Positions 5,645 to 53,374 of a DNA stretch of 64,000 nucleotides are shown here, one piece after another. Under the pieces are notes generated by a model. The model saw only the letters and a program-made list of their open reading frames with translations. It did no database searches and was not told the origin of the DNA. How positions within the stretch are numbered: position 1 is the first letter of the stretch; every line of letters starts with the position of its first letter. The translations under genes and the position numbers were made by a program. The DNA is from Eledone cirrhosa (Eukaryota). Location: contig OZ024750.1 in assembly GCA_964016885.1 (NCBI GenBank), positions 45,384,001 to 45,448,000 of the forward strand, read 5' to 3'.

Positions 5645-6084
5645 CGTGTGTCTATGTGTATTCGCTATACGTAAGTGACTTCCTGGTAGTCGCACGATTA
5701 GTTTTTCGTATCCATAGAGTCAAACTCGATATATAGTGTGTCATATATAAAATGCAACGTCGTTCATTTTATTTGGTTACAATGGAAGAACTCATATGGG
5801 TGTTTGGTTATGTACCAGTTGTATATTGTTTATATCAACCCTCTCTTTGTTGCTACCCCCTCACTATACGGACACATATCCAGACACATACACAGCCACT
5901 TGTACCAACACACACACACACACCGAGACACGTGCACCAACATACACACATAAAAGCACATATATGTATATATAATTTCCTATATACGTACATTTTTATA
6001 TACTTATATAAATAAATATATATATATAAGTATATATTAATGTACGTATATAATTCTCTCTCTCTCTATATATATATATATGTG

Positions 6085-6151
<67 letters not shown>

Positions 6152-6204
6152 ATATAGATAGATAGATAAATATACACAGGTGTGTATGATTGTGTATAGA
6201 AGAT

Positions 6205-6610
6205 TATATTAATAAGAGGAATTCCAACTTTGTCTGATTTACTCGTTTTATTTACAATTCTTTAAAATTTATAATGGTATTTTAATGAAATAGTATGATA
6301 GACTATTAAATGTTAAGTGTTAATTGAACAATTACTTTCATGCTTTCGCAATCTTCAGGTTCATAATGTGTGGTGACAGTCAAGTTTGCAATTCTCAACT
6401 GTGAAAATTTTCACAGTTGAGAATTGCAAACTTGACTGTCACCACACATTATGAACCTGAAGATTGCGAAAGCATGAAAGTAATTGTTCAATTAACACTT
6501 AACATTTAATAGTCTATCATACTATTTCATTAAAATAGCATTATAAATTTTAAAGAATTGTAAATAAAACGAGTAAATCAGACAAAGTTGGAATTCTTCT
6601 TATTAATATA
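6205..6610. repeat. 406-bp near-perfect spacerless palindrome with a hammerhead core in each arm
   Basis: Centre at 6407/6408 (GAAAA|TTTTC), 203-bp arms with 2 mismatches. TGAAC-CTGAAGA-TTGC-GAAA-GCAT-GAAAGTAATT-GTTCA lies at 6452-6490(+) and its mirror at 6325-6363(-). Confidence 0.9.
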
Positions 6611-6628
6611 TATATATATATATAAATA

Positions 6629-7590
<962 letters not shown>

Positions 7591-7595
7591 ACGAA

Positions 7596-7627
<32 letters not shown>

Positions 7628-7676
7628 GCATATATACACAGACATATATAGCGAGAGTAAGAGGTTTATATATACA

Positions 7677-7757
<81 letters not shown>

Positions 7758-7769
7758 GTGTGTGTGTGT

Positions 7770-8210
7770 GTAGAGGTTATATTTAATTTGTTGGGATTCA
7801 ACAAGCAAAATATTTTTATAACTGATATAAAGCACTCAACAAATTATTACAGTAAATATACAATATATTAGCAAATGGAAACTATATTTACAATACCATA
7901 TTTATTTCGTTATACATATATCAAGGACCACCAAAGCAGATTATGGTGCGCTTTCATCAGATAATATATAATATAGATTAGTTTTATAAATAATTATTGA
8001 CATACCCTGAAAAATACAACCTTCACAGAGTCTGCAACCGTGAAGTTGGCATTTTTCAGGTTATGTCAATATTTATTTATAAAACTAATCTATATTATAT
8101 TTTATCTGATGAAAGCGCACCATAATCTGCCTTGGTGGTCCTTGATATATGTATAATGAAATAAATATGGTTTTGTAAATATAGTTTCCATTTGTTAATA
8201 TATTGTATAT
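7770..8210 (-). mobile_element. Palindromic family A element with 3' tail on the left
   Basis: Arms ~7856-8025 and 8040-8210. CTGATGA at 8106-8112 and its mirror, with GATA replacing GAAA in both arms. 7770-7855 is the reverse complement of the tail at 53290-53374. Confidence 0.85.
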
Positions 8211-8289
8211 ATATATATTTATTTCAATATATATATACACACACATATAGAGAATGAAAGAGATTTATATACGTACATTAATATGTACG

Positions 8290-8380
<91 letters not shown>

Positions 8381-8461
8381 TGTATATGCATATATATATA
8401 TATTCTGTATATGCATATATACACACATATATAGCGAGAGAAAGAGATTTATATAGGTACA

Positions 8462-25928: not shown

Positions 25929-25960
<32 letters not shown>

Positions 25961-26009
25961 TATGTATACATATATATATATGTATAAATATATATATATA
26001 TATGTATAT

Positions 26010-26208
26010 AAGTTTTAATATAGATGAGATTCTACAGGACTAGAACTGTTTCATTCTTTAGAAATCATCAGAATTTCTCCTGAGATTCCTGATGATTTCT
26101 AAAGAATGAAACAGTTCTAGTCCTGTAGAATCTCATCTATATTAAAACTTTTATACTCTGCAATGTATTGAGTACCTTACTTACTGTGGTTACCCGGAAT
26201 AACGTACC

Positions 26209-26210
<2 letters not shown>
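26010..26210 (+). mobile_element. Family C palindromic element (arms 26010-26071 / 26089-26150) plus tail
   Basis: Perfect 62-bp arms, 17-nt spacer, ~58-nt tail and TA flanks. Confidence 0.85.
26081..26135 (+). ncRNA. Type I hammerhead ribozyme motif
   Basis: TGAGATTC-CTGATGA-TTTC-TAAA-GAAT-GAAA-CAG-TTCTAGTC-CTG-TA|GAATCTCA. It has an 8-bp stem I, a 4-bp stem III and a GUA site, with the predicted cut after 26127. Confidence 0.85.
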
Positions 26211-26287
<77 letters not shown>

Positions 26288-29671: not shown

Positions 29672-30660
<989 letters not shown>

Positions 30661-34815: not shown

Positions 34816-35189
34816 AAAGGTGTGTACCTGATATTCACACCTATTATCAACAGCAATTAAAGATGTTTACAGTTATTTCTGCCTTTCAAATTTGTAATAT
34901 ATATGTATGTATACTTTTCTACATTTGATGAGAGCAAGACCTCCTAATTAATTAAGACTGTCATAGAAACTTCAAGACCAACATCACTTTAAGGTATGTT
35001 AACATCTAGGAAATTAAGCGAAAGATATAATATATTAATGGATACTGTTTTAATGCTCACAACGGACACACACAACGACATATGTATATGTACATATCTC
35101 TATATATATGTATTCATACATGCCCACACACACGAGCATAGATATATATATATTCATACGCAAACACACACATACACACGCACACACAC

Positions 35190-35853
35190 ATATGTATACA
35201 GACGTACAGTAGTATGTATATATATATACATATATGCACATATATATATATATATATATGTACGTATTGATTCAACGAACATTTATTATAATGCTCGGTG
35301 TGTTTGTAAACAAACATACCGTATTAAGCCGTAGTGTCTAGCAACCATCGTCGCTCGTTTGTTCAACACTGACAAAGGAACGCTGTACTAGTTTCAAGCT
35401 TATTATCTATCGTCAGCAACGTATACCTTCCTGCCAGATTGTTGAACGTATATACTTACCTTATGCATATTAACGGCTGAGTAGCCCAATTTGCATATCG
35501 AGTGGGTTAATCGGCCGGGTGCACCGAAAACGATAAACGGAAAAATGAAACGAAATTTCATTTCCCACCGATAGCTAATAAGCTTGAAACTAGTACAGCG
35601 TTCCTGTGTCAGTGTTGAACTAACGAGCATCGATGGTTGCTAGACACTACGGCTTAATACGGGATGTTTGTTTACAAACACACCGAGAATTATATGTTCG
35701 GTGAATCCATACGTACATATATATATGTGTGCATGTATGTATATATACATACTACTGTACGTCTGTATACATATATGTATGTACGTGTACATACTTATAT
35801 TTAAGTAACAGCCGTACTAAGAGTGGGAAATGAAATTTCGTTTCATTTTTTCC

Positions 35854-35860
<7 letters not shown>
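35190..35860. mobile_element. Inverted-repeat element (arms 35190-35412 / 35569-35777) with complete hammerhead at 35381-35421(-)
   Basis: Minus strand CGTTG-CTGACGA-TAGATAATAAGCTT-GAAAC-TA-GTA|CAGCG. A second, interleaved inverted pair lies at 35533-35568 / 35823-35860. Confidence 0.8.
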
Positions 35861-35907
<47 letters not shown>

Positions 35908-36714
35908 AGTAAGTATGATTTGAAACAGTGAGCAGGTTTGAAATTAGAAAATATATAGCTTTCACCGTATTTTTTACTAAAGTAATTTTAGCCTGATAAT
36001 GTTTATTAGTGTATCTCTTTAAGGCTTTTTATATTCTGATGTAAGATCTGATCCAGGTCAGATTTACTTCTCCTCCTTCAGTAGTTAATAATCTGTGTTA
36101 TCAGTTGAGCTCCCGGACAATCGTTTATCCACAAACTTTTCCACCCTGGTACAGAATCTAGAGAGAAAGTAAGGTATATATATCTATATTTTCCCTATAA
36201 AATACTGCTTTTATCTAAACATATGTTAGCGATTTAAGCGCATAAATACCATCAACAATATTGGGATGTCTTCCATCTGTTTGTCACACATAATGAACCT
36301 AGGACTACATAATCCATTGAATAAACCCGTTTTAATAGATGATCAAATAGACGATTTAAAGACAGCTGCTACTTCTAGCATGTCGATTGACCAAGTAGTA
36401 GCGCTGTTAGACATTAACACATAGTGTTGTATTTCATTGCTTTCAAACATTTTTTCTTCAATTCATCTTATTTCCATTCCAAATATTAGAAAGCTTTTTA
36501 ACTGACAACATTTGTAAATTTTAATTCACATTTAAACATTAAATAGTAACTTAAGCTACTTCACTTGAGACATCTTTTATTTTCCTCGTCACATTTCAAA
36601 TATTTATTCGATATTTAAACGGAATGTGTACGCAGAGCACACATCTATACTCACACACAAACACACACATAGATAAAAAAAATATGTATATATATATAAA
36701 TGCATATGTATATG

Positions 36715-36821
<107 letters not shown>

Positions 36822-37348
36822 AGTGAGCTAGAAAGGTAGATAGATAGATTTGCTTCTACAGACACATACGAACACACAGGTACGTATACCTGAGTATTAA
36901 TGGGGTGGATTGTGTCAATTTACCCTTATCAAATAGTAACTTTGCTCACAAAAAGACCTACATGTGAACGGACTTGGCTTAGAGGTTAGAACGTTGGATT
37001 TACAATTGTTAAGGCGTGAGTTCGAACTCCGGACTGGCGAAGCCTAGTGTCCTTCAACAACACATTTTATTTCACACACTTTCAGTTAATTCAGCTGTAA
37101 AAATAAGTTACGACGTCATCCATGCCAAGCGCTCTAGACATTTACCTTACTTCTAGATGACATAGGTGACATGGAGTGGGCAGGCAGGTATGTGTGGTTA
37201 TTCGCTGGTCATCAACAAAAACACGTTGCCTAGAAAAATGCATCGTAGATGAATTTTATTTGAGTATCGTCCATCATCACCGAAACGACGTCATCTCCCC
37301 TATATGCATGTGGTGGGTTAACGCCACTTATACGTATATATATATATA

Positions 37349-37760
37349 TTAGAAATATAAGCTTTCACCGTATTTTGACTAAAGACATTTTTAACCTGAT
37401 AGTGGGGTTTAGAACCCTCAGAGATATGGAAAAAAATGAGTATTGACGTACATGGGAGTCGAACCCACATCTTTGGTTATCCAGACCACCGTGTTACCAT
37501 TACACCAACACATCACCCATCTCCGTCCATTCAAATTATAAGCTACATTCTTAGTATGTATTGACGTACATGGGAGTCGAACCCACATCTTTGGATCACC
37601 AAAGATGTGGGTTCGACTCCCATGTACGTCAATACTCATCTTTTTCCATTTCTCTGAGGGTTCTAAACCCCACTATCCGGCAAAAAATGTCTTTAGTAAA
37701 AAATACGGTGAAAGCTTATATTTCTAATTTCAACCTCCCTCACTGTTTCAAAATATACTT
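37349..37760. mobile_element. Family G palindromic element carrying a tRNA-like module
   Basis: Arms ~37349-37476 and 37598-37727. Full cloverleaf at 37444-37514(-), partial mirrored copies at 37558-37635, TA flanks. A fragment of the same family lies at 35905-36000. Confidence 0.8.
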
Positions 37761-38550
37761 ATATATATATATATTTATATATATATAAATGAAAAGTATA
37801 GAAATTATTGTAGCAAGAAGCCAACAGTATTCCATAATATATAAGTGACTATAGCATCAAAATGGGAAAATAGTTAACGTAAGATGTGGGAAAAATAATT
37901 CAAACTCAATTCAAAAAAGAATCAGGATATAGATTCATCCAACAGAATTTAATGAAATCCAGGGAAAAATCAGTAGAGCCTTAACGCATGATAAAATAAA
38001 GTTTAAAATACTCATCCTTCAATTTTGAAAAACTACAAATGGTCTGTATAGTCTTGAAAATACTATTTCAAGAAAACTTTCAGTGGGGATGGTCACGGTT
38101 GGAATTCGATCCTCAGCAGAGCTCAACACGATAGCCAAAATCTCACTGAAATGGTACAGAGCGAAATACCTGTTGTTAACGTGATATTCCTTGTTCGATC
38201 ATTATACCTAAAGCTTATAATTTTAAGCAGATAGTATTTTGATTTAGGTGTCATAGAAACCATGCATTTGTATTTTAACATCAATTTCAATGGGTCCAGG
38301 TCTGTGTATTTTTTCATTTATTTTGTGTTGACCTGTTTAGCTTCTTTTGTTTTTTGGCTTAGGTGGTTGATGCTTTCTTGACCTCTTTTCAGTTTTGTAT
38401 GGCGTTTTAAAATATTATTTAGCTCTGTGTTTTAACTATGGAGAGCTTGCCAGCATAATCTAATCCTGATTTTTGCGTTTCGTTTCGCTTTTTCTACCCG
38501 TCGAAATGCGATTCTCGCTGAATTTATATTTATATATATATATATATATA

Positions 38551-39278
38551 TAAATTATTTAGCCTGATAGTGAGGTTAAGAAGCCTCCGAGAAATGGAAA
38601 AAAGATGAGTATTGACGTACATGGGAGTGGAACCCACATCTTTGGTTATCCGGACCACTGTGCTACCATTTACACCAACACATCACCCGTCTTTTTCCAT
38701 TCAAATTAGAAGCTATAAACTTAGCGACTCTCATGTCAAGTAAGAATATTTTCGAAACAGCGAGTGGATTTGAATGGAAAAGGACGGGTGATGTGTTGGT
38801 GTAAATGGTAGCACAGTGGTCCGGATAACCAAAGATGTGGGTTCGACTCCCATGTACGTCAATACTCATCTTTTTCCATTTCTCCGAGGGGTCTTAACCC
38901 CACTATCAGGCTAAATAATTTCTTTAATTTCTTTAGTCAAAATACGGCGATAGCTAACATTTCTAATAATTAAAAAATCCACTCGCTGTTTCGAGAATAT
39001 TCTTACTTGACATTAGAGTCGCTAAGTTTATAGCTCCTAATTTGAATAGAAAAAGACGGGTGATGTGTTGGTGTAAATGGTATCACAGTGGTCCGGATAA
39101 CCAAAGATGTGGGTTCCACTCCCATGTACCTCAATATTCATCTTTTTCCATTTCTCCGAGGATTCTTAACCCCACTATCAGGCTAAATAATTTCTTTAAT
39201 TTCTTTAGTCAAAATACGGCGATAGCTTACATTTCTAATAATTTCAAATCCACGCGCTGTTTCGAGAATATTCTTACT
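38551..39278 (+). mobile_element. Family G: inverted partial copy followed by ~2 tandem 272-bp monomers
   Basis: tRNA-like modules at 38613-38684(-), 38790-38861(+) and 39062-39133(+), period 272 bp. Both ends lie in (TA)n. Confidence 0.85.
38790..38861 (+). tRNA. tRNA-like cloverleaf (anticodon position GGA; probably not a translational tRNA)
   Basis: Acceptor GATGTGT/GTACGTC, D stem GTGT/GCAC with A box TGGTGTAAATGG, anticodon stem TGGT/ACCA with loop CCGGATA, T arm GTGGG-TTCGACT-CCCAT, and TTTTT at 38871-38875. It lacks the long variable arm of tRNA-Ser and purine 37. Confidence 0.6.
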
Positions 39279-39547
39279 ATATATATATATATATATATAT
39301 AAATATATTTATATAAATATAAATTCAGCGAGAATCGCATTTCGACGGGTAGAAAAAGCGAAACGAAACGCATGAATCAGGATTATGCTGGCAAGCGCTC
39401 CATAGTTTAAAAAAAACAGAGCTAAATAATATTTTAAAACGCCATACAAAACTGAAAAAGTGGTCAAGAAAGCATCAACCACGCCAGCCAAAAATCAAAA
39501 GAAGCTAAACAGGTCAACACAAAATAAATGATAAAATACACAGACCT

Positions 39548-39601
<54 letters not shown>

Positions 39602-52948: not shown

Positions 52949-53010
<62 letters not shown>

Positions 53011-53015
<5 letters not shown>

Positions 53016-53374
53016 GATATTAACAAATGGAAACTATATTTATAAAACCATATTTATTTCATTATACATATTTCAAGGATACCAAGTTAAATTATGGTAT
53101 GCCTTCATCAGACAAAATACAACATATATCAGTTTTATAAATAAACATTGACGTACCCTTTCAAAATGTATATATATTGTATTTTGTCTGATGAAGGCAT
53201 ACCATAATTTAACTTGGTATCCTTGAAATAGGTGTAATGAAATAAATATGGTTTTATAAATATAGTTTCCATTTGTTAATATCGTATATCTACTCCAAAT
53301 ACTTGTCGAGTGCTTTATATCAGTTATAAAAATATTTGCTTGTTGTATCCCAACAATTTAAATAGAACTTTTGC
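53011..53374 (+). mobile_element. Palindromic family A element plus tail; intact hammerhead at 53056-53118(-)
   Basis: Arms ~53011-53128 and 53172-53288. ATTTTGT-CTGATGA-AGGCATACCA...TGGTATCCTT-GAAA-TATGTATA|ATGAAAT. Tail 53290-53374 followed by TA. Confidence 0.85.

Follow-up and report, generated by a model that had tools for sequence, protein, structure and literature searches.

A tRNA-bearing, ribozyme-less mobile repeat of Eledone cirrhosa with the hallmarks of PLE mobilisation

How does a non-coding repeat spread when it lies between TA runs, carries a tRNA cloverleaf and has no self-cleaving ribozyme? The question is raised by positions 37349..39278 of the window, by which we mean the whole 64,000-nucleotide stretch of Eledone cirrhosa DNA analysed here, and it was followed through the assembly (3.0 Gb, 1,796 contigs). 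The best explanation overall, to which we give a probability of roughly 0.6, is that of a non-coding mobile repeat copied by the reverse transcriptase (RT) and endonuclease of a Penelope-like element (PLE), in which the tRNA is a Pol III promoter and does not decode. Its parts differ in strength. Mobilisation by a PLE, together with a selected and non-decoding tRNA module, is highly probable; that the tRNA acts as a Pol III promoter is likely; and the linear read-through route, exactly as proposed below, falls slightly short of even odds.

The interval, which a preliminary description had taken for one element, contains an insertion of subfamily A (37348-37761) and, apart from it, one of subfamily B (38552-39278); the subfamilies are about 82-84% alike. 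The repeat unit is non-coding and 256-271 bp long; the subfamily B consensus measures 271 bp, and the plus-strand tRNA copies lie 272 bp apart. Unit coordinates refer to window 39008-39278, in which the tRNA occupies unit 55-126. The parts are these:

35905..36001, minus strand: 5'-truncated subfamily A copy (unit 165-256 plus TGA); its 3' end abuts (TA)n at 35857-35905
37348..37761, no single strand: insertion A, TA on both sides; inverted arm 37561-37348 (unit 8-221, without the tail), short inverted piece 37594-37558, forward arm 37592-37761 (unit 86-254)
37444..37514, minus strand: tRNA module of insertion A, 71 nt, anticodon loop CUGGAUA, Rfam 50.7 bits
38552..39278, no single strand: insertion B, TA on both sides; inverted arm 38774-38552 (unit 236-271, then 1-186), forward tandem 38768-39007 (unit 33-271) plus 39008-39278 (unit 1-271)
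38613..38684, minus strand: tRNA module in the inverted arm of B, Rfam 39.5 bits
38772..38789 (unit 37-54), plus strand: leader arm of the leader-trailer helix, B monomer 1
38785/38786 (unit 50/51), C/G step: putative Pol III start, B monomer 1
38790..38861 (unit 55-126), plus strand: tRNA module of B monomer 1, Rfam 42.4 bits, with A box, B box and a tRNA-Gln-like D arm
38864..38881 (unit 129-146), plus strand: trailer arm, B monomer 1, including T5 at 38871-38875
39062..39133, plus strand: tRNA module of B monomer 2, Rfam 35.7 bits, the lowest of four
39117..39130 (unit 110-123), plus strand: main 5'-truncation hot spot, covering T loop, T-stem 3' strand and acceptor 3' strand
39216..39260, plus strand: conserved stem 209-215/247-253, one double change between subfamilies, predicted reverse transcriptase recognition site
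39243..39278 (unit 236-271, up to 274), plus strand: tail of about 35 nt that separates one outer end from the other

The TA flanks are as first described, and so are the 3' ends at 35905, 37760 and 39278, all three of which adjoin (TA)n. It was also correct that the tandem monomer of about 272 bp lacks a hammerhead: the motif CTGANGA occurs on neither strand of the monomer, and no Rfam ribozyme family matched 38500-39330 at E<=10 (miRNA matches in the Rfam scan are a product of the inversion). The asserted likeness to hammerhead elements of the window holds as well. Six other palindromes with a hammerhead-like core end in or near TA runs (6072-6737, 7609-8433, 25931-26252, 30115-30519, 35176-35788 and 53007-53292), and these are probably PLE terminal-repeat remnants or retrozyme-like elements. 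Around insertion B an inverted repeat (265 bp, 92%) covers window 38295-38551 and 39291-39550; it belongs to another palindromic element that has no hammerhead core, and its central TA run is where B was inserted.

A 23-mer from the 3' end has 1,387 exact genomic matches and a 23-mer within the tRNA has 507, counts that represent subfamily B only; reversed-pattern controls gave 0, and the family is therefore not a product of chance. Copies of subfamily B lie 3.2% from their own consensus, and subfamily A (30 loci) and the older subfamily C (10 copies) are separate waves. The copies of C come without flanks, and the analysis of ends covers A and B. An exact 22-mer of the element had 0 matches in metagenome and viral contigs. 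At G000:C2:314.53-314.62 Mb the element occurs 13 times at a spacing of about 7 kb, likely within a larger tandem duplication.

The insertion pattern was read from 68 distinct insertions (28 + 40), taken in order from 100 tail matches listed on one contig. Head-to-head inversions account for 51/68 and a tandem junction is present in 11/68; a TA or CA run lies at the 3' side in 65/68 and on both sides in 55/68, and the whole tRNA is kept in only 16/68. Of 67 forward arms, 65 end at unit 269-271, and three extra unit bases follow 25 times; inverted arms end at 230-237 in 30/52 and at 212-226 in 13/52, reaching 270 in 1/52. This sample was picked by the tail; the subfamily A loci, picked by tRNA rather than tail, show the same two 3' ends. 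The loop of the conserved stem 209-215/247-253 contains the inner 3' ends (217, 225, 230-237). The unit has no tail of its own, ending at 270-274 directly into TA, and target-site duplications are unreadable inside the TA runs. Neighbouring units join directly, head to tail or head to head, without an internal part between them, a two-LTR layout is absent, and an insertion carries up to 3 same-strand tRNAs (2 or more in 11/150).

PLE insertions are reported to have an optional tail of 30-40 nt, a truncated copy next to them in inverted orientation, partial tandems and (TA)n as target (PMC8557442), and a PLE protein is reported to nick and extend both strands of AT-rich DNA, with two internal priming sites bounding the tail (PMC11167929). 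Because tail, inversion and microsatellite features match the former account and two-strand internal priming matches the latter, we believe that the PLE-type mobilisation proposed at the outset is correct: the two outer ends are about 35 nt apart, 5' ends are inverted, tandems are partial and the target is TA. The earlier suggestion that the tRNA replaces self-cleavage is conjectural, and for the one PLE tested in vitro, hammerhead cleavage was unnecessary for insertion (PMC11167929).

The search for a linked RT, suggested earlier, succeeded in part. ORFs combining RT with GIY-YIG exist in the genome (938 and 477 aa), but none of those compared has a related 3' end. No autonomous PLE with such an end appeared in 50 of about 10,600 candidate GIY-YIG loci, a small sample, and no related 3' end appeared in 11 Naiad-like remnants or 10 extensions of them, by six motif searches, or in the three Octopus Naiad 3' ends taken from the PMC8557442 supplement. 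Several apparent leads fell away: weak matches of 19-21 nt near PLE endonuclease ends are coding coincidences, a by-eye antisense match of about 12 nt in the 3' UTR of the Octopus Naiad is within chance, and the old copy that neighbours a Naiad remnant (L273) is an insertion of its own, bounded by TA, and not part of the Naiad. The Naiad remnants of this genome resemble published Octopus Naiads by eye. Eleven Naiad-type RT motif matches (L267-L277) include about nine recognisable remnants, all carry stops in the translated stretch, and the lineage that they represent looks extinct here.

The tRNA module was identified with the Rfam model (gathering score 29) and ARAGORN. The four window modules score 36-51 bits (35.7-50.7), which upholds the cloverleaf claimed for them, if with blemishes: G27.A43 is a mismatch in the anticodon stem, and three of the acceptor pairs are G.U. 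The difference between copies at pair 13-22 is real, with U13-A22 at 37444-37514 and U13-G22 at 38790-38861. The A and B boxes, which we assign on an assumed box consensus, are intact in subfamilies A and B, and C has lost the B-box residue A58. At A58 (73/75) there is no surplus of misread bases, the signal of m1A58. Covariation, proposed as a check on the cloverleaf, gave a divided answer: between subfamilies there are 0 double-sided changes, 3 one-sided changes and 1 mismatch, but the module itself is conserved, with A and B differing at 2/72 tRNA columns vs 37/200 elsewhere (p 6e-4). Since it is conserved above the rest of the unit, the tRNA is probably no passive passenger.

At the same time, it does not look like an ordinary tRNA. 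Copies score as tRNA-Ser(GGA) in tRNA callers (ARAGORN, 3/4 window modules). A functional tRNA-Ser has U33, a purine at 37, a long variable arm and a stable anticodon; here the anticodon loops read CCGGAUA, CUGGAUA and CCGGCAA, with C33 or U37, the variable loop has 4 nt and no long variable arm, and the anticodon is GGA in A and B and GGC in C. Given these loops, a variable loop this short and a subfamily C without A58, the module likely does not decode, to judge from its sequence, and the same unstable anticodon, residues 33 and 37 and missing arm agree with the earlier view that this is no tRNA gene array. Its D arm equals that of genomic tRNA-Gln genes in 17/18 bases; the other arms are unlike them.

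Other tRNA-like sequences of the genome belong beside this one. A variant of the element with a longer D loop and a Gln-type D arm lies at C2:218582136-218582189, and a tRNA-like sequence with a Gln-type D arm and unrelated other arms at G000:C4:270551213-270551266. Tandem tRNA-Gln/tRNA-Thr clusters (G000:C1:168.21-168.28 Mb, C6:47.25-47.30 Mb; L152, L154) are ordinary tRNA arrays. A different dispersed repeat (L153, L155-L163) has an internal tRNA-like module around 1501-1573, mostly GGC and scoring up to 71 bits, with T4 behind it, conserved flanks of at least 200 nt upstream and at least 330 nt downstream, and an inverted internal repeat about 1.2 kb away; it is a second tRNA-carrying mobile element of other design.

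What the tRNA does during copying can be approached through the 5' ends. The 68 insertions provide 126 of them, after four alignment artefacts at 96 were reassigned to 116 and one spurious end was dropped. Fully 57/126 fall at unit 110-123, most often at 116-117, where the T stem has its G-C core; this truncation hot spot, like the leader-trailer helix described below, is an addition to the earlier reading. Overlapping 4-mer palindromes at the T arm account for 27 symmetric joints, and 29/99 remaining ends are still there; with these 29 asymmetric or flank ends left over, palindrome annealing alone is out as the cause of the cluster. In subfamily A the cluster does not show, with 2/52 ends in it against 4/39 in a matched B sample (p 0.40). 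Positions 116-121 would mark a stop on the folded T arm, or could instead be a cut site. Release by RNase Z, part of the role first proposed for the module, finds no support, with 2/126 ends at 126-129, the RNase Z site, and 0 genomic joints found that skip the tRNA. An anticodon-loop cut with RtcB closure was rejected, with 0/126 ends at 86-92. Nor is this a plain SINE, as the preliminary description had rightly held: 5' ends at the tRNA start make up only 7/126 in this tail-selected sample.

The 76 tRNA-bearing segments from 64 loci are more informative about the start of the RNA. Among them 41 enter the previous monomer, which again separates the element from a plain SINE, and 35 end earlier: 20 at unit 51-59 (-4 to +5), a cluster with p 1e-8, 7 at 41-49 and 8 at 3-36. 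Four segments begin precisely at G51, after a C (one of the four abuts TA directly), and 12 begin at 54-57. We infer that unit 51 is the Pol III start and 55 the end made by RNase P. The proposal of a tRNA supplying a promoter and/or RNase P sites is thereby supported indirectly, through ends at -4 and around +1. Genome-wide, spans of leader plus tRNA number 158 exact and about 480 corrected, vs 507 exact and about 1,050 corrected for the tRNA, and the leader is absent from about half of the tRNA-bearing segments. Contigs of one public sample show joints at the T arm and the tRNA start in 11/15 cases among the matches listed; the sample is possibly the source of the assembly, and such contigs speak of joints, not of expression. 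In the upstream monomer, 11/76 tRNA-bearing segments end at unit 247-261, within the tail, and these ends could come from palindromic 4-mers at 255 and 261 or from a second bound enzyme.

The 18 bases before the tRNA pair with a trailer that contains the T run. The helix has 17/18 pairs in B, 18/18 in A and 21/22 in C, where matched insertions add two bases to each arm, at -19 to -25 kcal/mol, and it terminates exactly at the -1/+1 junction, with a 3-nt bulge next to the acceptor. The T5 terminator noted earlier does start 9 nt behind the discriminator, but the same T run is also a helix arm, which had been missed. Three to four more hairpins are common to all subfamilies, one with a C-G to U-A change, and 9/11 variable pair columns keep pairing (p 0.005, a lenient value, as the helices were picked from the same sequences). 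RNAalifold and single folds return the helix, acceptor and T arm or a rod, never the whole cloverleaf; fold z scores are modest, -1.6 to -2.5 in sense and -0.7 to +0.5 in antisense, and 8/200 shuffles are as good. Because the helix involves sequence upstream of the tRNA, reaching 14 nt upstream of the putative start, a single-monomer transcript is unable to form it, and the working RNA should therefore be a multimer or a circle. Since extensive leader-trailer pairing inhibits RNase P (PMC9705548), we think it more probable that the helix shields the tRNA within a read-through multimer than that it splints a circle.

The general pathway of a linear route can now be proposed. Pol III would start 4 nt before a tRNA module, and some transcripts would cross the T run into the body and on into the monomer behind it. 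RNase P may trim the first module at +1, while in the downstream monomer the leader-trailer pairing of 18-22 bp would shield its tRNA from processing, so that the template stays whole. The PLE enzyme would then nick both strands of a (TA)n run. Priming would be internal to the RNA: for one strand at the end of the tail (270-274), for the other at AU-rich sites that lie 35-55 nt before it. Synthesis would stop mostly at the T arm, else at the RNA 5' end, or continue into the previous monomer, and the two cDNAs would join head to head. Only copies with a tRNA ahead of another monomer could be sources. In this scheme the tRNA is likely a promoter and RNA-shaping module in the place where related elements have a self-cutting ribozyme. 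Two features weigh on the route: T5 or T6 right behind a tRNA should stop most Pol III transcripts, and here the run (T6 in C, T5 elsewhere) lies right behind the tRNA, against read-through; and a linear route loses array length in each round unless recombination or template jumps rebuild the array.

A circle made by the host is the chief competitor, and a rather unlikely one. RNase P would cut successive tRNA modules at +1 in a read-through RNA, and the monomer ends, splinted by the leader-trailer helix, would be ligated and copied in rolling-circle fashion by the PLE enzyme, as proposed for retrozymes. The element might then be, though we doubt it, a retrozyme with a tRNA in place of the ribozyme, the module being promoter, RNase P substrate and, with the helix as splint, circle-closing device. 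The end of the helix at exactly -1/+1 and the 12/35 ends at 54-57 suit such a circle, as does a monomer junction length that is exact in 100/100 among the matches listed, and an RNA ligase for 5'-phosphate and 3'-OH ends, Rlig1, is reported from vertebrates. Rare variants are shared within an insertion at 0.67 per 100 sites for tandem pairs (n=43) and 0.39 for inverted pairs (n=98), compared with 0.019 between insertions. The divergence of tandem monomers does not exceed that of the two arms within an insertion (4.3 vs 4.4 per 100), and among 35 tandem pairs none from different places have 2 or more upstream/downstream differences in common. Since the segments of an insertion share rare variants, one template sequence was evidently copied repeatedly, which fits a circle or a young, homogeneous source array. 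The inhibition of RNase P by extensive pairing tells against cutting, although the 3-nt bulge lies next to the acceptor; the 7/35 ends at 51-53 require a linear start, and the tandems L198, L229 and L016 show later unequal exchange.

Two further readings keep less of the Pol III pathway. In one, which we regard as improbable, a long RNA made by Pol II or by host read-through serves as template and Pol III yields a short terminated RNA or nothing, leaving the tRNA as an RNA fold only (RNase P site, stabiliser or docking). The conserved T5/T6 terminator, the lost A58 of C, a helix that requires sequence upstream of the putative Pol III start and the 41/76 segments that extend past unit position 1 would all suit it; ends exactly at G51 after a pyrimidine (n=4; joints at 38688 too), however, fit a Pol III start better than a cut, and subfamilies A and B have both the A box and the B box intact. 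In the other, the repeat is a LINE-dependent tRNA SINE, a tRNA gene array or a passive tRNA pseudogene in a PLE terminal-repeat remnant. SINEs too are laid out as a tRNA, with A and B boxes, and a body behind it, some copies begin at the tRNA, and the D arm is that of tRNA-Gln genes. Set against this are two fixed outer ends, the 51/68 inversions, a tandem junction running through a conserved upstream leader, the unserine-like features of the module (C33 or U37, no long variable arm, GGC in C where A and B have GGA) and its conservation above the rest, and we consider this reading largely refuted and the least probable.

Regardless of the route, the element matters in several respects. PLE tail, inversion and tandem formation become testable, using purified protein, on a 271-nt substrate for which priming sites and a stop are mapped and thousands of natural products exist. 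Should RNase P and a splint replace self-cleavage here, the comparison would reveal the role of the hammerhead in retrozymes and a second route to small circular RNA. In genomes like that of Eledone cirrhosa, moreover, tRNA and SINE annotation is inflated by copies that score as tRNA-Ser(GGA).

Among known systems, tRNA-derived SINEs, which include octopus OK, OR1 and OR2 (the octopus SINE paper is reportedly that of Ohshima and Okada, 1994), are alike in a tRNA head with A and B boxes, a body and 5' truncation. By description, the element is set apart from them by conserved pre-tRNA sequence, a circularly permuted unit, internal priming and the lack of an A or simple-repeat tail of its own, and SINEs start at the tRNA head, whereas 41/76 segments here continue into the previous monomer. 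It could nonetheless be included in the 893 recently active 'unclassified SINE' families reported in PMC13282606. The TRIMp3 elements Helenus, Ajax and Cassandra share an internal, mostly non-functional tRNA or 5S serving as Pol III promoter and are repeat-dependent and non-autonomous, but they are LTR elements with PBS, PPT and 4-5-bp TSDs, and the element has no two-LTR layout; the word 'Penelope' has 0 occurrences in the accessible portions of that paper (PMC10886601).

Animal non-LTR retrozymes come closer. They are described as non-coding structured units of about 170-400 nt, dispersed and in tandem, thought to be non-autonomous PLE derivatives (PMC7229834, 10.64898/2026.07.22.740005), and tandem units of 256-271 nt fit that size. 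The type I hammerhead of each unit is absent here, however, a tRNA module sits in a long helix, copies are mostly truncated and head to head, and a circle is only a candidate; 'tRNA' and 'polymerase III' have 0 occurrences in the main text of the retrozyme preprint (10.64898/2026.07.22.740005). The schistosome elements SM-alpha and Sj-alpha are likewise reported to have a Pol III promoter and tandem units, the upstream unit transcribing the next and single copies being dead ends, but their monomers are freed by a hammerhead (PMC6765202), where this element has none and carries instead a whole tRNA fold and a leader-trailer helix. With non-autonomous PLEs (MRC1) and Naiad insertions it shares the 30-40-nt tail, the inverted 5'-truncated copy, partial tandems and (TA)n (PMC8557442, PMC11167929), and Naiads, as characterised in PMC8557442, also lack a hammerhead. 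A tRNA module is not described in the accessible portions of these accounts, where 'tRNA' occurs 1 time, on selenocysteine, and the comparisons made here found no 3' homology to an autonomous family.

The statement that no equivalent has been described was thus too strong, in that Pol III modules are known in non-autonomous LINE, LTR and hammerhead-bearing tandem elements; in the literature searched, we found no description of a ribozyme-less, tRNA-bearing, PLE-dependent element, and the novel part is this ribozyme-less PLE version. The repeat has the structural features of a non-autonomous PLE, without the hammerhead of retrozymes and SM-alpha or the architecture of SINEs and Helenus. It would fill an empty cell, since Pol III-driven parasites are known for LINEs, as SINEs, for LTR elements, as TRIMp3, and in PLE-like tandems only together with a hammerhead.
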